Shown: positions 1,055-42,121 of the stretch, piece by piece | How the letters are laid out: every line of letters starts with the position of its first letter | Position numbering within the stretch: the first letter of the stretch is position 1 | IMG/VR virus record: IMGVR_UViG_3300045988_096302 | Direction: 5' to 3' (one strand) | Origin: a virus | Length of the DNA: 60,112 nt | Translations under genes and position numbers: made by a program | Notes under the pieces: generated by a model | The model's input: the letters and a program-made list of their open reading frames with translations, nothing else | Told to the model about the DNA's origin: nothing | Database searches by the model: none

Positions 1055-1492
1055 ATGTCAAAACTATCATTTAAAGCAAAAGCACCTGAAGTCCGTGAAT
1101 TTATTTACACACCAGGACGATATGAAGTACTTGTGGAAGCTGTAGAGCAAGGAACTAACCAAAACACAGGAGCACTTTTCTACAAGTTTGTGCTTCGTGG
1201 TAACTTTGGTGAAAACCTTACAATGTTCAACTTATTTGTACGTGACAATACTTATGGACAAGAACAACTCTACAAGATCATTGAAGCTGTAGGTCTTGAT
1301 CCTAACTCAGATGATATTGACACAGATGATATTGTAGGTAAGTACATGGGAGTTGAGATCAAAGAAGGTGACCCATACCAAGGTAAACGTCAATTCAATG
1401 TACGTGACATCTTTGCCCTTGATGAAGAAGACGAAGATGAAGAAGGCTCAACAGACTCGGATGCAGATGATGATTGGGAAGATGCAGAATAA
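1055..1492 (+). CDS. DUF669-like single-strand DNA-binding protein with acidic C-terminal tail
   Basis: RBS GGAG upstream. N-terminal YTPGRYEVLVEAVEQGTNQNTG pattern and a C-terminal DEEDEDEEGSTDSDADDDWEDAE tail typical of SSB-type proteins. Confidence 0.55.
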   Translation: MSKLSFKAKAPEVREFIYTPGRYEVLVEAVEQGTNQNTGALFYKFVLRGNFGENLTMFNLFVRDNTYGQEQLYKIIEAVGLDPNSDDIDTDDIVGKYMGVEIKEGDPYQGKRQFNVRDIFALDEEDEDEEGSTDSDADDDWEDAE

Positions 1493-1498
1493 TTAAGT

Positions 1499-1743
1499 GG
1501 TATCCCTAGTGGATACCTTACACGGAGTAGCTAGGATCTCCTTATAGATTACATTTTTATTTCGATTGCCAGCACTTGTGATTCCCACACTAGCTACTCT
1601 CTGTAAGGTATTTACTTTTTTAACAAGCCTAGTTAGTACAAAAAGACTTTCCATAGATATTTCTACACCCAAAGTTATTCTCACAATTTATGTTCCTATT
1701 TATATTTTTTGATTTCGCTTCTATTACCCAACTAACTAGGCTT
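1499..1743 (+). ncRNA. candidate structured RNA / 5' leader: one local hairpin plus two long-range helices in a 270-bp gap
   Basis: GGTATCC/GGATACC hairpin at 1499..1517. 18-bp helix 1516..1533 with 1591..1608 (one mismatch, one G-T), followed by a T-run. Perfect 13-bp helix 1625..1637 with 1731..1743, ending 4 nt before the RBS of the 1763 gene. Confidence 0.3.
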
Positions 1744-1762
1744 CTTAAAGGAGTAAATATGA

Positions 1763-2653
1763 ATGAATAAACTTGAAGAGTTTAAGCTCTATGTGTTAAA
1801 GCGTAGAGATGCCTTTGAGCACAAGTACAGAATAGGTAACAAGACTGTGGGAGATCTTTACAGATATGATCTTCCTAACAATCTAAAATACCTTGATGAC
1901 ATGTCTCAAATGTTTATTAGAACACTAAACACAGCTAGAGTACCCCTAAGGGATAAACTACTTACTGTGTATGTTTATCGCTATATAGGTCATGAAAAGT
2001 ATGTCAGAAGATGTACTAATGAACATGATGTAATCACAATACATCAACTAGAGAAGTTAGCAACTAAGCTTAACTCAGCTAAGGCTAAACTTTCTCCTAA
2101 CTACAAGTCTCCTGCTATTCAGGTAATGACTAGAGAGCTTAATAGAGGAGAAAGGTTTCTTGCTTCCTGTGCAGATTTCATTGACAAGCTTCCTGATGAT
2201 CTATTCTATGGATGGAAGTGTAGTGAGATCTATAGATACTATAATAAGAAGTGTGATGTGTATGGACTGAGTAAGTTCACAGCTTATAACCTAGCTACTG
2301 ACCTAGCTTACATTAATGAGCTACACATTGAACTAGACTTTATTAATGGATGCTCACCTAGCATGAGAAAGATGTACCTTGAAATTGTAGAGAAGGATAG
2401 GTTTAATGCACAGGAGTATAAGAAGTTTGCTATTGACTTTATGAAGTGGTATCTAGATCAGCCTTTTGCAGATAGCAAAGAGAGGATCATTACCCCTAAT
2501 GATGTAGGACACATGCTTGTAGCTTACTATAAGCTCACAAGAGGTATGTGCAAGATTAGATACCCTAAGAAGACTAGGGCTAAGGTCAGTGACTTGGTAA
2601 TATCAAGGAGTATGTATGAATTTTATAAAGGTGTACCAAGTGAAACTGATTGA
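1763..2653 (+). CDS. hypothetical protein (296 aa)
   Basis: Long ORF with RBS AAAGGAG 9 nt upstream of the ATG. An upstream ATG at 1759 terminates after 3 codons. Confidence 0.6.
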   Translation: MNKLEEFKLYVLKRRDAFEHKYRIGNKTVGDLYRYDLPNNLKYLDDMSQMFIRTLNTARVPLRDKLLTVYVYRYIGHEKYVRRCTNEHDVITIHQLEKLATKLNSAKAKLSPNYKSPAIQVMTRELNRGERFLASCADFIDKLPDDLFYGWKCSEIYRYYNKKCDVYGLSKFTAYNLATDLAYINELHIELDFINGCSPSMRKMYLEIVEKDRFNAQEYKKFAIDFMKWYLDQPFADSKERIITPNDVGHMLVAYYKLTRGMCKIRYPKKTRAKVSDLVISRSMYEFYKGVPSETD

Positions 2654-2819
2654 TGAGCTTGGTAATTGTTACTATGATGAAACTATCTGTGGCTTTAAGA
2701 AGAGACAGAAGTTCATTAAGAAATGGTCAGGAGATGATCAGATTACTAGAGTTCAAAAAGGTGATATAACTATTTATATAAAGAACTGTGGAGAGGAGTT
2801 ATGGTCGTATGAATGTTGA
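2616..2819 (+). CDS. hypothetical protein (67 aa)
   Basis: ATG preceded by AAGGAG. Overlaps the end of the previous gene in the same direction. Confidence 0.45.
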   Translation: MNFIKVYQVKLIDELGNCYYDETICGFKKRQKFIKKWSGDDQITRVQKGDITIYIKNCGEELWSYEC

Positions 2820-3111
2820 TATTGAAAAGGTTAAGTTAGCAGAAGAGCCTAAGTCATCATCTGCTAAGGCATCTGATGAGTACATCAAGCTAGAAAGAGA
2901 GTTTGATAAGCTTACTGAAGCAATTAAGCTTTCACATAGCACAAGAGAGAGAAAAGCTATGAGAGCACGAAAAAAGAAGATCCGTGAACAACAGAACCTT
3001 CTTTACTATCAAATGCTTTACTCAGGCTACATTGAGTACACTCAGACTGTGCTAGGGTTATCTACACCACAAGCGCTGTATAAGAGACTTAAGAAGCACA
3101 AGAAAAAATAA
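2809..3111 (+). CDS. small basic protein, possible C-terminal helix-turn-helix regulator
   Basis: ATG at 2809 lies 10 nt after GAGAGGAG (the ORF-track start at 2788 is GTG). The C-terminus TQTVLGLSTPQALYKRLKKHKKK resembles a sigma region-4-type HTH. Confidence 0.45.
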   Translation: MNVDIEKVKLAEEPKSSSAKASDEYIKLEREFDKLTEAIKLSHSTRERKAMRARKKKIREQQNLLYYQMLYSGYIEYTQTVLGLSTPQALYKRLKKHKKK

Positions 3112-3133
3112 AGAGAGCAATTAAGCTCTCTTT
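3110..3133. terminator. bidirectional rho-independent terminator between the convergent arms
   Basis: AAAGAGAGC-aattaa-GCTCTCTTT, a perfect 9-bp stem. It is flanked by an A-run upstream and ttatttt downstream, so there is a T-run on both strands. Confidence 0.8.
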
Positions 3134-3979
3134 TTATTTTGGACAATTACAGTCATCCTTAGGAAGTTCTGTAAGTTTAAGACATTCAGGAGTATCTTGT
3201 GCATCCATGATAGGAGTGTACTCTAGCTTGAATTGGTGTACACGGAATACACCTGAAGAAGAGTTAGCAGGCTCTACTCTCACCTTGACGTGCTGTCCAG
3301 CAGGTACAATAATACTATCAGACATTTCCATAGCACCATCTGAGATACCAGTCATCTGCCAGTGTACTCCACGGTTCTTTCTAAGGTCTTCAGTATACTG
3401 TTCTCCTGAGTGGTATACTACAATCTCCATTGTGTTATCTTGTGCTGGATTGAGTGTAGTACCATCTGCACACCATCTGATGTAAACACGGTACTTACGG
3501 TCAGTTTGCTTTCTTCTACCATCATCAGACTCACCAGCTACAACTCCTGTAGTAGAGTCCATGTAGAGGTCTAAGTCATAACCATCTGTGATAGGATGAT
3601 AGAAGTCAGCAGATGATACAGCAGAGTTTCTAGCATAGTTTACTTGAACAGCACCTACATCACCCATCTTAGATAGGTATTCAGCCATACACTGAACCAT
3701 ATCCCACAATGCACAGATGTTTTGAATGTAGTGGTTAAGTTGACAAGCCAGCTTCTTCATGAATGAACTGAAGAACTTGGGATTGTAGCATTTCTGACTC
3801 TCAGCCATACATGCAAACCGTCCTACACCCTTGTTATTCTCATCTACTAGTCGTTGACAATCTGCAACAGGAATTTCATCACAGTCACATTCATCATACC
3901 AACAGCGATCCTTAGGATTCTCACCATAACTAGTGAATGTTGCTTCATTCAGTCTAGTTGTTTTATCATCAATAGCCAT
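3134..3979 (-). CDS. fibre/receptor-binding-like protein with Cys-rich N-terminal module (paralog family)
   Basis: ATG overlaps the upstream stop (TAATG). N-terminal CWYDECDCD...ACQLNHYIQNICALWDMVQC resembles the N-termini of 7888, 8451 and 9743. Last gene of the - arm. Confidence 0.5.
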   Translation of the reverse strand: MAIDDKTTRLNEATFTSYGENPKDRCWYDECDCDEIPVADCQRLVDENNKGVGRFACMAESQKCYNPKFFSSFMKKLACQLNHYIQNICALWDMVQCMAEYLSKMGDVGAVQVNYARNSAVSSADFYHPITDGYDLDLYMDSTTGVVAGESDDGRRKQTDRKYRVYIRWCADGTTLNPAQDNTMEIVVYHSGEQYTEDLRKNRGVHWQMTGISDGAMEMSDSIIVPAGQHVKVRVEPANSSSGVFRVHQFKLEYTPIMDAQDTPECLKLTELPKDDCNCPK

Positions 3980-5385
3980 TAGTCACCAATCTTTCCTTGT
4001 GCTTTCCACTTACCACCCTTACGAATACGTGAAGGTGAGTAGTTTTCTTTACCAGTATCAGTAGCATAGATTTCAGCATTAGGTTTAGTATCCCAAAAGT
4101 TTTGGTTAGCTGTCCTTCTAATCTTCATCCACTGTCTTGTAGTGTTAAGAGACTTCCAAGCATTAGACTTTCTAATAGCCCATGGTCTAATCTTAGCATT
4201 TTCTGTGTAGTACACAGTAATGACATTGTTACCTTCAACCACAGTGTGAGTATAGGTAGTCTTCTCAGGGGCATAGTTAGTGATAGCAGGAGCATTGTAG
4301 TTCACATTGCTACCAATAGTCTGATTACTTAGAGTTACATCCCCACGTAGTGGTTGATTATTAGCCTTATTAAGATGCTTAACAATAACATTAGCAGTAG
4401 TGGGAATCTTCTCATACCTGAAGGTGTAGTTTCCATTACCAGTTACTCTAGGTACATTGATAGGGTTCTGACCTGGTACAAGTCTATAACCTTGGATGCT
4501 AGGAGGATCTTTCCTGAAAGGATCTCCATGAGTCACAGGAGTGTAACTTTGAGTCTGAATCTCTCTTCCTGTGTCCTTATCAATGAACTTAACAATCTGT
4601 CCATAGATAGGGTTGTATCTAAAGATAAGTTCCTTAGTTTGTCCTGAAGGAATCCATGTAATCTGATTCCTATCTCCAATTAGCTTATATGTTGCCTTAT
4701 AAATCTCAGGAGCAGTGTGTGACTGACTTGCATCACCAGGTACTTTCTTAGTCTCAGTACTAAGTACAGCTCCCGTAACATTGTCTACATACTTGATTAC
4801 AAGTGTACCTTCTTTAGGAGCTTGAGGAACATTAAGGATGCTTGTATTAGGCACAGTCAAACTGAATGACACAGTAGCAGTTGTTGGACTAAACTGCCAT
4901 TGGTCAATAGTAGTGGCTACATCACCTCTTTGTTCATTAACCTTTGATGAGATCTCAACATCATTAATATTTAACTGTTTATTGATTGTCTCAGTCCAGT
5001 TATTACCAAAGGCTGGGTCATAGGACTTATTGAAGATCATCCCTTGTGGAGTGTTAATTCCATATGAGGCATTACCAAAAGCTCCTGAAATTGTAAGTCC
5101 TGGTGTCTTAGTATAGGACACTGACTTGATTACAGCTCTTGTGTGTCTAGCTTTAACTTTAGTACCTTCTACCACAAGGTCATAGTAGATACTACCTTCA
5201 GTGTTTACATAACCAACAGCAATTTGACCACCATCAACAGAAGGAACAAGCATAGGGTTTTCAATCCTAAAACTGTTCCCACTGATATAGGTCTTAGTAC
5301 CACTGTCAGTAGAGTAGATATTAAGGCTTAGGGCTTGCCTTACCTTAGTAATCTGTTCCTGATTAAGTGTAGCTTGATCTGCCAT
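3979..5385 (-). CDS. tail fibre-like protein with three MucBP-like repeats
   Basis: RBS AGGAGG. The three repeats are LVIKYVDNVTGAVL...ELIFRYNP, IVKFIDKDTGREI...QGYRLV...YTFRYEK and VIVKHLNKANNQPL...NVITVYYTEN. Confidence 0.55.
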   Translation of the reverse strand: MADQATLNQEQITKVRQALSLNIYSTDSGTKTYISGNSFRIENPMLVPSVDGGQIAVGYVNTEGSIYYDLVVEGTKVKARHTRAVIKSVSYTKTPGLTISGAFGNASYGINTPQGMIFNKSYDPAFGNNWTETINKQLNINDVEISSKVNEQRGDVATTIDQWQFSPTTATVSFSLTVPNTSILNVPQAPKEGTLVIKYVDNVTGAVLSTETKKVPGDASQSHTAPEIYKATYKLIGDRNQITWIPSGQTKELIFRYNPIYGQIVKFIDKDTGREIQTQSYTPVTHGDPFRKDPPSIQGYRLVPGQNPINVPRVTGNGNYTFRYEKIPTTANVIVKHLNKANNQPLRGDVTLSNQTIGSNVNYNAPAITNYAPEKTTYTHTVVEGNNVITVYYTENAKIRPWAIRKSNAWKSLNTTRQWMKIRRTANQNFWDTKPNAEIYATDTGKENYSPSRIRKGGKWKAQGKIGD

Positions 5386-34965: not shown

Positions 34966-36309
34966 CTACACAATTAAGTTTTTGGCTAGATAAGCATCAG
35001 CCATTCGTTTGTCAATATTCTTCAAGCGTTCATACACATCAAGGATGTAAATGTCATTATTGTAGTTGTAGCTATTAGCAAACTCATAACTATCAAACTT
35101 GATATGCTCTTTCAATCCTGTAGATTTTTGAAGCAAGTGTACAATCTGTCCTAAGAAATGATCTCGCATTGGAATGATTGTGTTCTTCATAGCGTTGTCA
35201 ATAATGCTGTAAGTACCAATGTTTGATACTGTTTTATTCAAGTCAAACAATCTAGCTGGTACTCCAAACATCTGACAGATAATAGCTGGAACATACTGTG
35301 ATAAGTAGTCCAGGAAGTCAGTTGCTTTAGTATCACGCTCTAGTTGCTCAAGGTTTTGGAAGTTCCCTGAATATACAATAGCATCATTGAACTCAGTCTC
35401 AGAAAGTTTCTCAGCAAAAGCATTCATATCCTCAACAATCTTCTGAGTACGTTCTGCCTTAGCAGTTCTACCCATGTCAAGTAGCTCTCCGCTAGAGAAA
35501 GCAGAACCTTGCTCTACACTTTCCTCAATCTGTTCTTCCAAGGTATCTTTAGCTTGTAAAGCGATAGTACCAATACCATTTCTTGAAATATCATAGTTCA
35601 TACGGTTAAGGATATTCAGAATAAGCTCTACACGCTTTCTATCCTTAAGCAAAGGACTCATACAGAATACCTGTGATGTATCTAGTCTGACACAAGCAAA
35701 CTCATCACTAGTCACAACCATGACATCATTCTTGTACTTCTCAGGATCTTTAAGGATTTCTTTGATGTCATCCTCTGAGTAGTCAGATGCTACTCTAGGG
35801 TTCCCTGTTTTCTGTACATAGGGTGTTCTGTAGTAGTCACCTTTCTTGATAAGATAAGTCAAGTTCTGTCTTAACACAGGCATCTTAGGGTAGTCAATCA
35901 CACAAGCGAGAATATCCTTGGGATGAATACCTACAAGACCTTCTTTTGTGTTTAGGATACCATAGTAACCATATTTTCTATATCCTTTAGCTACCTGCTT
36001 TAATACATCATAGTTTCGTTGTCCATTGAAATTATGACCATAAAGGAATTTTTTCAACTTCTCATCCTTACTGAAGTCCTCAGTAGTAAGGGAGTTAGTG
36101 AACATGTAATTAACAATGTTATCTAGGATGTAATCAACATCAGGAAGATCAAGAGCCAGTTGCTCAATCTCTTCTAGATTTTCATTGATAGATGTTCCTC
36201 TGAATCCTGTACTTGAATAGATCAATCTGTCCTTGTAGTCAGCAAGGAAGTGCCTATCCATTGCACATTGACCACCACAGTCATCTTTCTTACACTTTCC
36301 ACAAGTCAT
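34966..36309 (-). CDS. putative portal protein
   Basis: 447-aa ORF start-stop coupled (TAATG) to the large terminase. The call rests on position and size only. Confidence 0.55.
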   Translation of the reverse strand: MTCGKCKKDDCGGQCAMDRHFLADYKDRLIYSSTGFRGTSINENLEEIEQLALDLPDVDYILDNIVNYMFTNSLTTEDFSKDEKLKKFLYGHNFNGQRNYDVLKQVAKGYRKYGYYGILNTKEGLVGIHPKDILACVIDYPKMPVLRQNLTYLIKKGDYYRTPYVQKTGNPRVASDYSEDDIKEILKDPEKYKNDVMVVTSDEFACVRLDTSQVFCMSPLLKDRKRVELILNILNRMNYDISRNGIGTIALQAKDTLEEQIEESVEQGSAFSSGELLDMGRTAKAERTQKIVEDMNAFAEKLSETEFNDAIVYSGNFQNLEQLERDTKATDFLDYLSQYVPAIICQMFGVPARLFDLNKTVSNIGTYSIIDNAMKNTIIPMRDHFLGQIVHLLQKSTGLKEHIKFDSYEFANSYNYNNDIYILDVYERLKNIDKRMADAYLAKNLIV

Positions 36310-37949
36310 TATGACCCTCCTAAGTAATAAAGCTCAGCCACATGAAGAGAAAGCAATACACTATCCAGTTCGTCAGGAGACTGTCTGAGTAGCTTCTTAA
36401 TCTCTGCCTTAGGCCTGATCTTAACTTTTCTGTCCTCAGGTCTTTGAACCTCAGACACAAATGACATCTGCCTTGAAATAGCATCCCACACTTTTCTAAC
36501 AAAGGAAACTCTCTGTGCTTCCATCATACCTCTCAACATTAGGTGCATTTCAGCCCTTCTGTTGAAAGCATATTCAGCACTAGGATCTTTACCAATAATC
36601 TTGATCTCAGTAGGTTTACCACCAAAGTTTATGTCATACACAGGGCATTTAAGCTGTCCTGACAACCTTCTCATCTTGAGAGGCTGTACAATATGTGCTC
36701 CACCACCAGCATCTATGCCGATAGCTTTCACATTAAGTTGATTGGCAATGGTCACAATCTTATTGACAATTTCAATAGCTGTGACACCATCAATCCACTC
36801 TTTAGGCTTAATGTCCATTGTATCAATAGCTGTGAAGTGATTAGACTTGTCCACAGAAGAGATAGTGACCTGGATAGAGTCAGCACCTTTATAGGCACTA
36901 TCCACACCAAGGAAGAACTCCAATCCCTCTGTTTTCATGTCAAAGTCATCAAGGATATCAGGTGATGCATCAAAGAATGAAGATCTCTCAGTAGGGAACT
37001 CACACAGAAGGTTTTCTCGAATAGAATCCTCTGTAATTGTGAACTGAGATCTCATCAACTCATCCTTGGTGTACCTGATGCTTCCCTCCTCCATTGCTGT
37101 AACCACATCCAGCCACATAACAAATTCATCATCAGCAAGGTCTTCATTGGTCATGAAGTCATAAAAACTATTCAATGACCGTGGGTTTGAGATTAGGTAC
37201 ATAATCAACTTACGACCATCATCTGATTCAAATTCCCTACGACCCATGTGACCAAGGGCAATAGGTGAGATGTCAGAAGCTTCATCCCCAAACATGTTTC
37301 CTCCACGACCAATAACATGGATTTTAGATGGATCAGTATAGTTACTACCTGCGGATAGACCCTCTAACTTACCACCATTTCTGAATGTGAACCCTTCACT
37401 AGAGAATGATGATAAACCACGCTTTAGTCGCTTATCCACTGATGTTACATCCTTTTCATCAAAGGACAACATAGCCTTCACATCAGGGTGAGCGTTCACT
37501 AGGATTTCCCTAGCATGCTGAATGATAATTCCTGAATACTCTTGTGTTGATCCTACAGCATAGCAGTTCTCACCTTCATAAGCAAAATGGTTTGACATAA
37601 TGCCACAGAGGAATGACTTACCATACCGAGGAGTAGCCACACAGTATCCTGTTTTGAAGTCTCCACTAAGGAACGCTCCAAATTGCACAGCTTGAGACCA
37701 CCATAGCTCTAAGTTAAACTCAGATAATGCTGTGGTGAACCCAAGCTTGTAATATTCTAATTCTTTTTCAAAACCAAACCTTTCACGAATTGTGTTTCGC
37801 TTAAAGTGTTTGGGTATCTTTCCCTTCACAGCATCTTTAAGTTGATCCTGTGGAGTCACCTGATCCAAAAGGATTGATAACTTTTCCTTGTTGGATAAAA
37901 CCTTACGCTTTTGAGTAAGTAACCCAACATCTGCATCTTGGATGTGCAT
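36309..37949 (-). CDS. terL: terminase large subunit
   Basis: Walker A-like ATPRYGKSF, Walker B MFGDEAS, and a C-terminal nuclease-like FLGVDSAYKGAD. ATG at 37949 follows AGGAGG (the ORF-track start at 37976 is TTG). Confidence 0.8.
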   Translation of the reverse strand: MHIQDADVGLLTQKRKVLSNKEKLSILLDQVTPQDQLKDAVKGKIPKHFKRNTIRERFGFEKELEYYKLGFTTALSEFNLELWWSQAVQFGAFLSGDFKTGYCVATPRYGKSFLCGIMSNHFAYEGENCYAVGSTQEYSGIIIQHAREILVNAHPDVKAMLSFDEKDVTSVDKRLKRGLSSFSSEGFTFRNGGKLEGLSAGSNYTDPSKIHVIGRGGNMFGDEASDISPIALGHMGRREFESDDGRKLIMYLISNPRSLNSFYDFMTNEDLADDEFVMWLDVVTAMEEGSIRYTKDELMRSQFTITEDSIRENLLCEFPTERSSFFDASPDILDDFDMKTEGLEFFLGVDSAYKGADSIQVTISSVDKSNHFTAIDTMDIKPKEWIDGVTAIEIVNKIVTIANQLNVKAIGIDAGGGAHIVQPLKMRRLSGQLKCPVYDINFGGKPTEIKIIGKDPSAEYAFNRRAEMHLMLRGMMEAQRVSFVRKVWDAISRQMSFVSEVQRPEDRKVKIRPKAEIKKLLRQSPDELDSVLLSLHVAELYYLGGS

Positions 37950-38583
37950 AGACAGTATCTCCTCCTGTGTAATCAAGACTTTCTGATATTTGCACAGATG
38001 GAGCTACAGCCTGAAAGCTTTCATCCACAGGAATAGTTAAACCATCCATAGCCTTACAGATAGGGCAAGTTCGCTTATCACCTACAGCGTTCCATGTCTT
38101 AAGGAGCTGTTCTCCTGTGATTTCACCAAAGAGCTTAGCACTTTGCACAGAAGCTTTCTCAATCCCCATCTGTGTCTCACTTAATGCAAGACGGTCAATG
38201 TTAGACCAGTAGGATTTAAAGATCTCATCCTTGCTCTGAGTATCCTTGTTCTCATTCACAAGTTTCTTAAGATCCTTGACATGGTTATCCATGATCTCTC
38301 TGAGTCTTCCACGGTTACTTCTCACAAAAGAAGAAGTATCAACACCATTTCTCAGATTTATTAGATCCTGTGGATAGATGTTGTACCCTAAGGCATCCAA
38401 GATGTAATCAATCTCATCTAGGAATGTCGAAGAGTACATATCCACAAGGTAGTCAATGACAGCATCTTCAGCAGTCAAATAATCACCATCATAGATCACT
38501 GAGGATGCAAATGTCTCTAATAAAACCAAAAGATCAGGATAATAGCTATCAAAAACCTTATTTCTAGGGTTCTTCTTAGTCAT
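37903..38583 (-). CDS. head morphogenesis protein (SPP1 gp7 / Mu F-like)
   Basis: The C-terminal TCPICKAMDG...AHPRCRCWV signature is typical of this family. RBS GGAG. Confidence 0.7.
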   Translation of the reverse strand: MTKKNPRNKVFDSYYPDLLVLLETFASSVIYDGDYLTAEDAVIDYLVDMYSSTFLDEIDYILDALGYNIYPQDLINLRNGVDTSSFVRSNRGRLREIMDNHVKDLKKLVNENKDTQSKDEIFKSYWSNIDRLALSETQMGIEKASVQSAKLFGEITGEQLLKTWNAVGDKRTCPICKAMDGLTIPVDESFQAVAPSVQISESLDYTGGDTVYAHPRCRCWVTYSKA

Positions 38584-38941
38584 TCATATCTCCAAACAAC
38601 TCATCAAGCTTAGCTTTAGTATAATTCTTAAGCTCCTCAACACCATCCTTGGTATCGTGGTTGACATTGACAGTAGTTTGAGTTGCTTTACCCTCAATAC
38701 GGTCAGCCCACTCCTTACGCTCATAGTTATCTTCAAAACTAGCCATAATTTGAAGCATAGCATTTTTAGCCACAGGAGTTGCAGGAGGGATTGAGTTATA
38801 GACTTCAAAGCCTATTTTACTCACAAGAACTTCATCTACGTCTACTAGCCCCCAACGCATTTGATAAAGCTTTAGTGAGTCCTCATCCAAAAGACTGAGT
38901 TCTCGCATTGTTTCAGAGTAAAGTTTACCAGTTCTAGCCAT
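38576..38941 (-). CDS. hypothetical protein, possible small terminase subunit
   Basis: ATG at 38941 follows GGAGG (the ORF-track start at 38971 is GTG and would overlap the tRNA). It is the first protein gene of the packaging block. Confidence 0.35.
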   Translation of the reverse strand: MARTGKLYSETMRELSLLDEDSLKLYQMRWGLVDVDEVLVSKIGFEVYNSIPPATPVAKNAMLQIMASFEDNYERKEWADRIEGKATQTTVNVNHDTKDGVEELKNYTKAKLDELFGDMND

Positions 38942-38966
38942 ACTAGCAAACCTCCAAAATTTGATA

Positions 38967-39040
38967 TACACCCTATAGGGCTTGAACCTATAACCGCACG
39001 CTTAGAAGGCGTGTGCTCTATCCAGTTGAGCTAAGGATGC
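38967..39040 (-). tRNA. tRNA-Arg (anticodon UCU)
   Basis: Hand-folded 74-nt cloverleaf: acceptor GCATCCT/AGGGTGT (2 G-U), D stem GCTC/GAGC, anticodon stem CACGC/GCGTG with loop CTTCTAA, T arm ATAGG-TTCAAGC-CCTAT. Confidence 0.85.
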
Positions 39041-39085
39041 AGAGGGGTAGATACCCCATAGGAGACATGAATACCAATCATGACA

Positions 39086-39158
39086 AGCCCCTGACAGGAT
39101 TTGAACCTGCGATCAAGCTTTTGCAGAGCCATGCCTTTGACCTCTTGGCTACAAGGGC
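39086..39158 (-). tRNA. tRNA-Cys (anticodon GCA)
   Basis: Hand-folded 73-nt cloverleaf: acceptor GCCCTTG/CAGGGGC, anticodon loop CTGCAAA, T arm GCAGG-TTCAAAT-CCTGT, and discriminator U73, which is the tRNA-Cys identity base. Confidence 0.8.
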
Positions 39159-39751: not shown

Positions 39752-39780
39752 ATTTTAGCACAAGAGTGAAATTCTGTCAA
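39752..39780 (-). promoter_or_regulatory. promoter whose -10 ends 7 nt before the ruvC ATG (leaderless mRNA predicted)
   Basis: On the - strand: TTGACA, 17 nt, TAAAAT, cattagc, then ATG. It shares the TGTGCTAAAAT -10 block with the promoters at 40103 and 46637. There is no Shine-Dalgarno sequence. Confidence 0.6.
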
Positions 39781-39783
39781 CAA

Positions 39784-40079
39784 CCTCTTTTTGTTTTATC
39801 TGTACACAAATGATTCACATAGATAATAATACTTACTTAACATTAATACTTAATGATTAATACTTAAGTACTTAACTACTAAGTAACTAAGTAGTATAGT
39901 TAGTAAGTTAAATTATATATATAAATCATTAATGCTTAGATTAATATCTTAGTAACTACTTAACTACTAACTTAGTAACCTAGTAACTTAGTAACTAAGT
40001 AGTAAGTATTAAGTTAATTATATATATAAATCATTTATCCCCAGATAGATATTTTAGGAAAATAATTTCTTTTATCCTC
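39784..40079. repeat. AT-rich repeat region between the divergent arms
   Basis: A 20-nt direct repeat AATTATATATATAAATCATT at 39911..39930 and 40016..40035. There are many ACTTA/TAAGT, TAACTAC and TAGTAAC units and a TACTTAAGTA palindrome. The motifs are shared with 46514..46561. Confidence 0.8.
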
Positions 40080-40108
40080 TTGACTATAATCGTTCACTGT
40101 GCTAAAAT
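40080..40108 (+). promoter_or_regulatory. early promoter (class TGTGCTAAAAT)
   Basis: TTGACT, 17 nt, then TAAAAT preceded by TGc. The RBS and the ATG at 40138 lie downstream. Confidence 0.65.
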
Positions 40109-40137: not shown

Positions 40138-41103
40138 ATGTACAGTAAAATTTTTAACCTCTACTTCAGTAAAGATAGACATCCAGGAAACAACATCATC
40201 TCAGAGGAATACTTTCAAGCTTCTGTGGAATTGGAAGGAAAGAGAGTAGCCAATGGAAGCCTAAAGCAGAATGTTAAAGACCTTGTGAAATTGCACTATG
40301 GTAAAGATATCACACAGATAGAATACTCTAGAAGTCCTCTTAGAGACTACTTCCACCTGTGCACAGAAGAGTTAAGTCACAGTGAGTTAGGAAAGCTTTA
40401 TTTTGACCTAATGAGCATGACTTACAAAGGTATGGAACTGTGTGATCTTGTGTATAAAGAAAATGGAGCACAAGCAGTAGCCAACTTCCTCTACAGCGCT
40501 AAATATAACTACTTCCACAAGGTGAGCATTGAGGATTATGAATATTACAATCCTGTGCCTTTTAGATTCTTCCTTAGCCTAGATCACAAGAAGTTTATGC
40601 CTAGAACTTCACAGGAGATGCTTTTCTTTAAGAAAGTAATTAGCCCTAGAGCTTATGGTAAGTTTGTAGCCTTAAGCACAAAGAGGATGGATAGATACCG
40701 AGATAGATATTCACGCTACCTTAACCACTACTTTACCACAGAGGACTTCACAGCCAAGTTCAGATTCAACGCTAACTTCACAAAGATGGTCACAAGGAAA
40801 GTCATCATGAAAGATAAGCTTCAGACCTTAGATGAATGGTTAAGCCTCTACAACCTCACTCCTATAGAGTATTATTCATGCTTTAACATTAAGTCTGACA
40901 CAGTAACACCTCGTATGGAATTAATCTGTAGCAAAGCAGGAATGGACACAAGAAGATTTATCTTTAACTCCTTAATCCTTAGCCTTGAGAAGCATATAGC
41001 CAATCCTTTCTATGGTGAGAAAGGTCATGCTAATCCTGATAGGTCAATAGCAATTAGTCATAGTAAATTTTTAAAGGAAACTGAAGGAACTCCTTCTTTC
41101 TAA
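40138..41103 (+). CDS. hypothetical early protein (321 aa)
   Basis: RBS AAGGAG 7 nt upstream. It is the first gene of the + arm and is followed by stacked terminators. Confidence 0.6.
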   Translation: MYSKIFNLYFSKDRHPGNNIISEEYFQASVELEGKRVANGSLKQNVKDLVKLHYGKDITQIEYSRSPLRDYFHLCTEELSHSELGKLYFDLMSMTYKGMELCDLVYKENGAQAVANFLYSAKYNYFHKVSIEDYEYYNPVPFRFFLSLDHKKFMPRTSQEMLFFKKVISPRAYGKFVALSTKRMDRYRDRYSRYLNHYFTTEDFTAKFRFNANFTKMVTRKVIMKDKLQTLDEWLSLYNLTPIEYYSCFNIKSDTVTPRMELICSKAGMDTRRFIFNSLILSLEKHIANPFYGEKGHANPDRSIAISHSKFLKETEGTPSF

Positions 41104-41198
41104 TCTAGTAGGGTAGCATTTAAGTTACCCTTTTTAAGTATCTAGGTTAACTATTAATCAACCCTAAATTAACCTTATAAAATTATGCTGGTATTTTT

Positions 41199-41225
41199 AA
41201 GAAGGTAATTTTCAACCTTCTTTTT
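41199..41225 (+). terminator. rho-independent terminator
   Basis: AAGAAGGT-aattttca-ACCTTCTT followed by TTT. Confidence 0.65.
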
Positions 41226-41235
41226 CAATTAATGT

Positions 41236-41259
41236 AGGAAGGTAAGTAACCTTCTTTTT
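41236..41259 (+). terminator. rho-independent terminator (second of a tandem pair)
   Basis: AGGAAGGT-aagta-ACCTTCTT followed by TTTA. Confidence 0.65.
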
Positions 41260-41635
41260 ATGTAGTAATGATAATTTAGGAAGGTAATGATGTAACACTT
41301 GATGGAGTAAGTAAGAAGTAACTTTAAACCCTAAAATTAACTACATTTTTATGCTGGTGAATAGGGAAGGGTGTAAGCCTTAAGCCTCTAATGACTAGAG
41401 GATTTTAAACCTTAATTTTACATGGAAATTTATGTTGGTCAATAGAGAAGATAGAAAGCTAGTAGTATCAATGGTTTAGGAAGGAATGAACCCTATTTTT
41501 ACATAAGAAAATATGCTCGTGAATAGAGAAATCAAGCCTCCCTCCCTGCCTCCTCATTTTTTAATCGACCTAACATTTTTCCATTTTTAACAACCTAACC
41601 TAACCCACTTTGTAACAATGAAAGGGGGAAATTAG

Positions 41636-41677
41636 AAAAAATTAACATAGCTTAACAAAAAAATTAACATACCTTAA
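41636..41677. repeat. iteron-like 20-nt direct repeat, 22-bp spacing
   Basis: AAAAAATTAACATAGCTTAA (41636..41655) and AAAAAATTAACATACCTTAA (41658..41677). They lie within a G-poor tract rich in CCTAAC/CTTAAC units. Confidence 0.75.
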
Positions 41678-41744
41678 TTTCTTTATTAACCCACCTTAAC
41701 CTCCATTACCTAACTGTACTATCTACCCTACCATTACACCATAC

Positions 41745-41770
41745 AAAAAAGCAACCATTAAATGATTGCC
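41745..41770 (-). terminator. rho-independent terminator of the lone antisense gene
   Basis: On the - strand: GCAATCA-tttaa-TGGTTGC (7 bp, one G-U) followed by TTTTTT, starting right after the stop codon. Confidence 0.65.
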
Positions 41771-42055
41771 TTAGTCTCTCCATCTCTTAGCTATCCTATA
41801 GCTACTGTATATCACTACCTTATCACCCTCTAGTCCACGAAGAGCCTGTTTGATATGTTTACTGTATATACTTGCTTCTTCAATAATAACTTGATAGCTG
41901 TTACCTCCTGTGATTAGTATTAGGTCTTCTTCATCTACCATATGAGAGTAGAGTACAGAAGTCCTCTTCTTTCTACCTTCCTTATAGGTGAGTACATTAC
42001 CCTCAATCCTGATTGATTGCTTGTGATTATTGGATATCTCTATTATCTTTACCAT
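41771..42055 (-). CDS. hypothetical protein (94 aa), lone - strand gene inside the + arm
   Basis: ATG at 42055 lies 10 nt after AAGGAG. It has its own promoter and terminator. Translation starts MVKIIEISNNHKQSIRIEG... Confidence 0.6.
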   Translation of the reverse strand: MVKIIEISNNHKQSIRIEGNVLTYKEGRKKRTSVLYSHMVDEEDLILITGGNSYQVIIEEASIYSKHIKQALRGLEGDKVVIYSSYRIAKRWRD

Positions 42056-42092
42056 TATTATCATTCTCCTTAAGTTATAATTCTCTACTATC

Positions 42093-42121
42093 ATTATATC
42101 AAAAAGGGGTTTACTTTACAA
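42093..42121 (-). promoter_or_regulatory. strong promoter for the lone antisense gene
   Basis: On the - strand: TTGTAA, 17 nt, then TGaTATAAT (extended -10 with a consensus -10). Confidence 0.65.

Follow-up and report, generated by a model that had tools for sequence, protein, structure and literature searches.

The window considered here is the whole 60,112-nucleotide stretch of the IMG/VR virus record IMGVR_UViG_3300045988_096302, and the element in question lies in its non-coding region at 41104-41770, where an array of degenerate repeats ends in an ungapped module of about 85 bp. This module is kept in every lineage of related phages, directly after the last repeat unit, and occurs again in satellites of mitis group streptococci. 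It is tentatively read here, at a probability of about 0.4, as a DNA-level packaging-recognition site (pac/cos) of a streptococcal phage family with genomes of ~61 kb that has been copied by satellites. No description of this element was found in the literature and it resembles no described pac, cos or ori sequence; comparison of the phage module with cultured phages and plasmids gave no DNA similarity.

Conservation and anatomy of the module

The related set comprises about 75 contigs (~61 kb) of several clades, obtained from three protein-anchored scans of viral contigs (a scan of viral contigs with the bare 15-mer described below gave mostly random matches), and the primase-helicases of the related contigs are 66-99% identical to that of the window. 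The module is the only part of the region that is conserved in all lineages, including those with primase-helicases 66-73% identical. It is made up, in order, of box 1, about 15 nt, box 2, 13 nt ending CAGCC or AAGCC, a pyrimidine tract and the 15-mer TTTTTTAATCGACCT. Box 1 is a T-tract, AACCCTATTTTTA in the close clade and (G/C)TAACACGTTTTTTA elsewhere, and box 2 is GGTGAATAG with a G/C alternation at one position. The pyrimidine tract drifts in sequence and keeps its length (17-18 nt) and composition, and the 15-mer is invariant across lineages. These parts, namely GGTGAATAG, the pyrimidine tract and TTTTTTAATCGACCT, had gone unnoticed in the preliminary description, which was made from the letters of the window.

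An alignment of twenty-eight diverse copies, taken from phages and satellites alike, extends over 95 nt free of internal gaps, and on it RNAalifold places 0 base pairs. Folds of single units and of a 130-nt core on either strand are no better than those of shuffles (mean z -0.78 and -0.28), the window's own - strand fold giving z = -2.7, and neither one hairpin for each unit nor a long one that closes the last of them was retained, both being overall no better than shuffles. Because the spacing is rigid, the T-tracts are phased and RNA structure is absent, the module points to a DNA site that would be read by proteins under helical-phase constraints. A DNA-level role in cis had been proposed earlier, and this stands on the rigid ungapped spacing and the lack of conserved RNA structure, although the features then relied upon, a pair of 22-bp repeats and an 81-bp period, are not themselves conserved.

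In the window the region and its two flanking genes are laid out as follows.

40138..41103, + strand: gene for a 321-aa protein of an orphan family, left of the array, followed by the terminator at 41110-41131
41110-41131, + strand: hairpin, the intrinsic terminator of gene 40138..41103, kept in relatives
41160-41198, + strand: partial unit ('unit 0'), box 1 AACCCTAAATTAACC and TATGCTGGT without GAATAG, kept in close relatives
41199-41222 and 41236-41256, + strand: two stacked terminator-like hairpins, missing in some relatives (L001, L013, L019)
41327-41368, + strand: unit 1, an extra box 1-box 2 half-module with GGTGAATAG at 41356-41364 (profile positions 5-49, E=0.009)
41408-41449, + strand: unit 2, an extra box 1-box 2 half-module carrying GGTCAATAG, its - strand reading TTGACC-16-TAAAAT
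41489-41530, + strand: third 42-nt unit, part of the full module
41485-41574, + strand: full conserved module (profile match E=3.8e-20), its motif unique in the window
41489-41501, + strand: module box 1 AACCCTATTTTTA, a T-tract
41518-41526, + strand: module box 2 CGTGAATAG, then AGAAATCAAGCC
41539-41556, + strand: module pyrimidine tract, from the anchored alignment
41557-41571, + strand: module invariant 15-mer TTTTTTAATCGACCT, from the anchored alignment
41636-41699, + strand: cassette 'T1', AAAAAATTAACATA(G/C)CTTAAC, with copies at 41636 and 41658 (22-bp repeat, Tandem Repeats Finder score 77) and a degenerate third copy at 41680-41699
41748-41772, - strand: conserved hairpin, the terminator of gene 41771..42094
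41771..42094, - strand: gene for a 107-aa protein, convergent, right of the region, with the terminator at 41748-41772 (-)

The region had been described as free of open reading frames (ORFs) between facing terminators, and so it proves to be, with no ORF of at least 30 aa within 41104-41770 and hairpins on both the + and - strands. The three 42-nt units are 71-76% identical in pairs and spaced by 81 and 81 bp, and the 39-nt spacers behind them are mutually unrelated, as the earlier remark on a different segment behind each unit had it. Their core TATGYTSGTSAATAGRGAA has 3 matches within 60 kb, all in the array, where 0.21 would be expected by chance and 0 of 100 shuffles gave 3. Five such cores had been counted. 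Those at 41351, 41432 and 41513 do belong to the 42-nt units; the one at 41185 belongs to a half-unit, unit 0 being the left half of a unit plus TATGCTGGT, then ATTTTT where full units have GAATAG; and that at 41260 is no unit, the supposed decayed copy having a spacer-like resemblance only (78% over 23 nt) and giving no match to the element profile. By the same profile the upstream units of the window match the box 1-box 2 half of the module only, and the units other than that in the module itself are duplicated box 1-box 2 halves of it.

In close relatives, with flanking proteins 88-100% identical, the intergenic region measures 479-667 bp. Units are present across the related phages at a copy number of 1 to 5 and with spacings of 43-105 bp, and the neighbouring 22-bp repeats are swapped. 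The 81-bp period, which is exact in this genome, is hence not kept in relatives, and since unit number and spacing vary even among close relatives it is, as far as the comparison of sequences goes, a recent tandem duplication in this genome and not a functional constant.

A resemblance to a weak promoter had also been noted on the - strand of each unit. Read so, the array (TTSACC, 16-17 nt, (T/A)AAAAT) would give rise to short or antisense RNAs, possibly with a phage activator acting on the upstream AGGTCGATT, and this we consider very improbable. Acceptable -10 hexamers do show a moderate excess, being present in 19 of the 55 unit copies where shuffles gave 10.3 +/- 2.7; the middle unit reaches 10/12 as a sigma-70 match, the TAAAATAGGGTT context recurs in the promoter of the initiator-like gene, and the satellite copy m1 introduced below has TTCACC-17-AAAAAT with a bidirectional terminator ~75 nt later. 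However, two thirds of the copies have no usable -10, many units of the distant clades having AAAAAC, and conservation is strongest in the -35-like box and in the bases that precede it rather than in the -10. Further, the distance from box 1 to box 2 collapses in some copies, transcripts would run antisense into the convergent gene, a T-run is missing from the - strand of the hairpins at 41199-41256 and there is no RNA structure signal. Elsewhere in the window, strong promoter-like sites at 39752-39780 (-), 40080-40108 (+) and 46611-46642 (+) share the extended -10 string TGTGCTAAAAT; the last of these continues as TAAAATAGGGTT, the reverse complement of the units' box 1, and a further copy of this 12-mer lies at 46478-46489 (-).

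The tract earlier noted as strongly G-poor is the most G-poor 215-nt stretch of the whole 60-kb sequence (41531-41745; G 6%, C 28%), and by eye the G-poor, C-rich composition to the right of the module is kept in relatives and beside satellite copies as the sequence drifts. The direct repeat at 41636 and 41658 is likewise genuine. Its reading as initiator iterons fails, since the 22-bp repeats are replaced in close relatives and show no co-variation with the initiator-like protein 46698..47534. The sequence downstream of the units is in fact a mosaic among relatives, with at least 4 unrelated cassette types in close relatives; in place of T1, cassette T2 has AAAATGGGTAAA arrays with inverted copies, cassette T3 has AAAATGAATAAA/ATATGCAT/ACCCATT sets, the cassette of contig L054 has three copies of CACCCTCCTTTT and three of TGTTAACAA, and in a distant clade ATTGTAATCAA/TTACAAC sets are found. 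Cassette type has no association with the initiator-like protein, the terminase-region proteins or any other protein tested at 34.1-59.3 kb, a span that covers all identified replication genes except the Sak4-like and SSB-like genes at 285-1492. Nor is there an association with the adjacent 107-aa protein, which is absent in two T1 genomes. Because cassette type tracks no tested protein, the 22-bp repeats are not specificity-matched iterons of any phage protein tested, and the idea of a partner protein for the variable cassettes was given up for this span. In a more distant lineage (L161, reverse strand ~1424-4218, with L131, L157 and L192) the non-coding region around the module is ~2.8 kb long. 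That of the L161 type contains several ATACGAATTA(A/T)AT repeats, which resemble the streptococcal ComX 'cin-box' TACGAATA, and some 330 nt downstream of the motif this lineage has an early promoter with a 12/12 consensus-like score.

A number of other identities for the array were tried and rejected. For a tRNA or degenerate tRNA array, ARAGORN finds solely the two tRNAs at 38966-39158, and no Rfam family matches at gathering thresholds, permissive matches being driven by the terminators. A clustered regularly interspaced short palindromic repeat (CRISPR) array or a mimic of CRISPR repeats does not agree with repeats that are 71-76% identical, irregularly spaced in relatives and in the wrong context, and no cas genes were present among the phage proteins scanned; a resemblance to a streptococcal type II-A repeat/tracrRNA was limited to non-conserved positions and was dropped. 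In type III antitoxin arrays, tandem repeats of 34-45 nt that are almost identical are transcribed ahead of a toxin gene, and a ToxI or pseudo-ToxI-type array was set aside as the units are degenerate, the spacers unrelated and a downstream gene is missing on either strand. Small ORFs fare no better, box 2 having TGA/TAG in two frames and relatives TAA in the third; the - strand ATG is not conserved, and no reading frame is conserved across the module copies. Lastly, readings of GGTGAATAG/CTTGAT as a DnaA box, IHF site, rolling-circle nick site or oriT match the consensuses poorly and are broken by the G/C alternation.

The module in streptococcal satellites

A degenerate search with the 15-mer across one genome per bacterial species gave 15 matches, about the number expected by chance, and the 3 of the 15 that fall in Streptococcus have box 2 at the same 39-nt distance as in the phage. 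An integrase-anchored scan yielded 78 streptococcal islands, and ~19 of them, which belong without exception to mitis-group species such as S. mitis, S. oralis and S. pseudopneumoniae, carry the module on a fixed strand and at one or two fixed places per island. A profile built from 40 phage copies alone detects full-length satellite copies, always on the same strand, with E down to 2.9e-8 in 1.44 Mb, and by our own count phage L080 and the satellite copy m2 have identical sub-segment lengths of 15+15+9+13+17 nt.

The islands adjoin rpsD and encode an integrase, a helix-turn-helix (HTH) repressor, a D5-type primase-helicase and accessory genes; their annotation includes neither terminase nor capsid genes, and no terminase was detected in them. 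With an integrase, a repressor, a primase-helicase with an iteron origin, a specific attachment site and no structural genes, they have the make-up of phage satellites akin to phage-inducible chromosomal islands (PICI-like). The region of their copy m1 is 100% and 96.7% identical to 'Streptococcus satellite phage' Javan305 and Javan323 (MK448418.1, MK448429.1), members of a described class, and streptococcal satellite prophages are widespread (PMC6813308). Javan305 and Javan323 thus have the same module, m1 being homologous to that of the phage. Unlike the phage they are integrative islands next to rpsD, and no literature report of their helper phages or route of transfer was found.

The island origin lies directly after rep and consists of AGTGTATCA iterons flanking a 48-nt AT-rich spacer; in the S. 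mitis O7-1 satellite (L235 4793-4893) a tandem AGTGTATCA x2 and an inverted TGATACACT follow the primase-helicase gene. Copy m1 is found ~400 nt beyond this origin and is 96% identical even where the rep gene has been replaced, and the satellite Rep has no homology to the phage replication proteins. Of the roles offered at the outset (origin, partition or packaging), packaging fits best, because satellites with an origin of their own carry the same module.

Copy m2 begins 0-6 nt past the stop codon of a variable cargo gene, whose product is a choline-binding protein in some islands but in other islands a membrane protein, and box 2 of m2 forms the terminator hairpin of that gene. Cargo and m2 together are an insertion/deletion cassette (L247 110-2107), absent from a 7.1-kb island variant in L149. 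In L239, at ~1960-2000, m2 has a tandem duplication of its box 1 (AGGTAACACGTTTTTTAAG x2), an event of the type that builds the phage arrays.

The position of m2, the hairpin it supplies and its gain or loss with the cargo would all suit a boundary element, that is a terminator or insulator between convergent units that also serves as a homology anchor for phage-satellite cargo swaps. Wherever it occurs, the module is flanked by convergent genes, in the phage 40138..41103 (+) and 41771..42094 (-), and in the satellites either cargo gene (+) and HTH gene (-) or accessory operon (+) and rep (-); the gene to its left also differs between phage clades. The C-rich, G-poor flank at 41531-41745 is also like a Rho loading site on + strand RNA. 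Against this, a terminator needs no invariant 15-mer, fixed 39-nt spacing or extra box 1-box 2 copies, the phage module and satellite m1 each come after separate canonical terminators, no hairpin is conserved across the copies, and homology anchors are usually less constrained in spacing. A boundary function is considered improbable. The same low standing is given to a portable attC-like or homology-anchor site at cargo 3' ends, serving phage-satellite gene exchange, in which case the phage arrays would be leftovers of repeated exchange events, or to its variant of a polypurine-tract-type primer site and with it a new kind of phage origin.

Possible roles in packaging or priming

For packaging, the box 1-box 2 units on phased T-tracts, presumably curved DNA, would be repeated binding sites of the small terminase, the candidate for which, on position only, is gene 38576..38971. 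The large terminase may act at the pyrimidine tract of fixed length and the invariant 15-mer. Tandem duplication could add or remove binding units harmlessly and would so lead to the 81-bp array of the window, and the satellites would carry their one or two copies of the module so that a helper phage of this family packages them. It is the binding proteins, the cleavage and the packaging role that we infer here, and packaging is ranked first because the satellites keep the module independently of their own replication module, so that something appears to be needed from the helper. In cos-type Staphylococcus aureus pathogenicity islands (SaPIs) a helper cos site stands in for the terS-containing packaging operon (PMC5052747), and S. 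thermophilus satellites whose induction depends on virulent phages are described as having putative cos sites (PMC13376191). All lineages examined, with large terminases 81-99% identical, have the module, and in all of them it lies upstream of the late/terminase operon; among close relatives the packaging proteins are 95-100% identical whatever the cassette type. Further, the ends of ~10 related contigs fall within 300 nt of the motif, scattered from -188 to +280 nt.

Several points weigh against this assignment. These contig ends share no single nucleotide and also cluster at two other repeat regions, and because of this scatter and clustering they may be assembly breaks. Gene 38576..38971 has no family match, retains only 52% identity in a lineage with an unchanged motif, and is separated from the module by 2.6-4.7 kb with an opposite-strand gene between. 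Satellites often hold two copies ~4.9 kb apart, and one of these (m2) doubles as a cargo-gene terminator, neither of which a pure packaging signal needs. The large terminase has its nearest cultured relatives in the Lactococcus P087 group, at 26% identity, and such a likeness gives nothing firm on pac versus cos.

Rather unlikely, in our estimate, is a replication start or priming site, at which a - strand transcript across AGGTCGATT-A6 and the purine-rich tract would form a stable RNA-DNA hybrid that primes the family-A polymerase. RNA-DNA hybrid priming of this sort is comparable to ColE1, T7 and the mitochondrial conserved sequence blocks (CSB). In an alternative form the boxes would bind an initiator. 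Satellites would carry the site as a decoy or for amplification on infection. On the - strand the tract is purine-rich and rich in G-runs in every lineage, with its length kept and its sequence not, beside an extremely C-poor flank. The replication set of the phage is of the T7 style, and in some close relatives an extended -10-like TGGAAAAAT stands just upstream of the motif on the - strand, a promoter whose conservation does not reach the distant clades. The minimum of the cumulative GC skew is found at 41-42 kb but coincides with the switch in gene orientation. Other results speak against this reading: no protein tested at 34.1-59.3 kb varies in step with the adjoining repeat cassettes, the satellites possess a rep-linked origin and retain the module when rep is exchanged, their Rep is not homologous to the replication proteins of the phage, and the AT-rich repeats at 46450-46600 are a more conventional candidate for the origin, directly upstream of the initiator-like gene.

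These latter repeats belong to a pair of related regions, 39830-40040, upstream of gene 40138..41103, and 46450-46600, directly upstream of 46698..47534, with 7-8-bp TAAGTA/CTTAGTAA runs and ATATATATAA blocks. They share 87-nt inverted arms that are 70% complementary and a 26-nt direct repeat that is 92% identical; no inversion between them was seen among the relatives. At least 8 contigs of relatives end ~1 kb upstream of the primase gene, at the second of these regions, which is a candidate for a conventional-looking origin or an assembly-breaking repeat.

The phage, its host and described systems

The window approximates to a nearly complete genome of an uncultivated ~61-kb phage. Its late operon runs on the - strand at 3.1-39.8 kb and encodes a RuvC-like resolvase, two tRNAs, the large terminase (36309..37976), the portal and a tape-measure-like protein; the tRNAs, tRNA-Arg(TCT) and tRNA-Cys(GCA) at 38966-39158 (-), separate the RuvC-like gene from the packaging genes at the operon's head. 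Early and replication genes occupy the + strand from 42.3 kb, with the initiator-like protein carrying an HTH domain (46698..47534), the primase-helicase (47535..49298), a family-A DNA polymerase, an exonuclease and DHFR; the set also includes a Sak4-like annealing protein and an SSB-like protein, encoded at 285-1492. The replication set is thus of the T7 style (polymerase A with primase-helicase). No integrase turned up among the phage proteins scanned and the family looks virulent. The window has no DNA-level match to any cultured phage, and its polymerase is at most 38% identical to Clostridium phage proteins.

Inside the replication module, at 49282-50829 (+), is a gene whose LPXTG-anchored product has a bacterial Ig and a collagen-binding domain. 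The protein is 57-61% identical to chromosomal proteins of Streptococcus parasanguinis and S. gingivalis, and the gene looks like a host-derived surface adhesin gene. Given this similarity and the origin of the related contigs from human oral/Human Microbiome Project (HMP) samples, the host is probably an oral Streptococcus. Left of the array, the 321-aa protein of 40138..41103 has no Pfam or PHROG match, its family has 6 representatives among 1.84 billion proteins, and its AlphaFold model is unusable at a predicted local distance difference test (pLDDT) score of 35. A weak similarity (25% identity, E=8e-4), confined to the last ~95 residues of the protein, links it to the product of a 185-aa gene at the same position in a distant clade, and a conserved GGTCAATAG is present in the coding 3' end of the gene, at 41042-41050.

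Among described systems, the closest in layout to the satellites discussed here seem to be the cos-type islands SaPIbov4 and SaPIbov5 of phages phi12 and phiSLT (PMC5052747), in that a non-coding phage site is carried by a satellite which has no recognisable small-terminase gene but has its own replication, and lies beside accessory genes. The present case differs from these islands in that packaging is argued from sequence, the phage family is uncultivated and looks virulent, most of the streptococcal satellites carry two copies, and there is no sequence resemblance to described cos sites.

In the pac site of Bacillus phage SPP1 (pacL/pacC/pacR), repeated short boxes on curved A/T-tract DNA flank the cleavage region, much as is proposed for the box 1-box 2 units and the motif. 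In contrast to SPP1, whose pac overlaps the small-terminase gene, the site here is at least 2.6 kb from the candidate gene and its box copy number varies between strains. Phage T7 has the short repeat arrays SRL and SRR beside its terminal repeats, and these too are imperfect short repeats in non-coding DNA just upstream of early genes and near a concatemer-processing site, as the present array would be. The T7 units are, however, 7 bp long. Iteron-type origins, such as the lambda ori or the SaPI ori directly after rep, have clusters of short direct repeats beside A/T-rich non-coding DNA and the 22-bp repeats of the window are similar in this; unlike iterons, these repeats are not conserved and do not co-vary with a candidate initiator, and the module itself has no iteron organisation.

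Overall the module is a composite site with rigid spacing, and tandem duplication of a half-site yields the otherwise mysterious repeat arrays in phage non-coding regions. Were the boundary-element or the primer reading to be true, the element would be the more unusual. Were the packaging reading to be true, it would be a helper site copied by satellites, and its value would lie in nominating helper phages for the streptococcal satellites; by way of the 85-bp element that both share, an abundant and uncultivated family of ~61-kb oral phages is put forward as the partner of these satellites.

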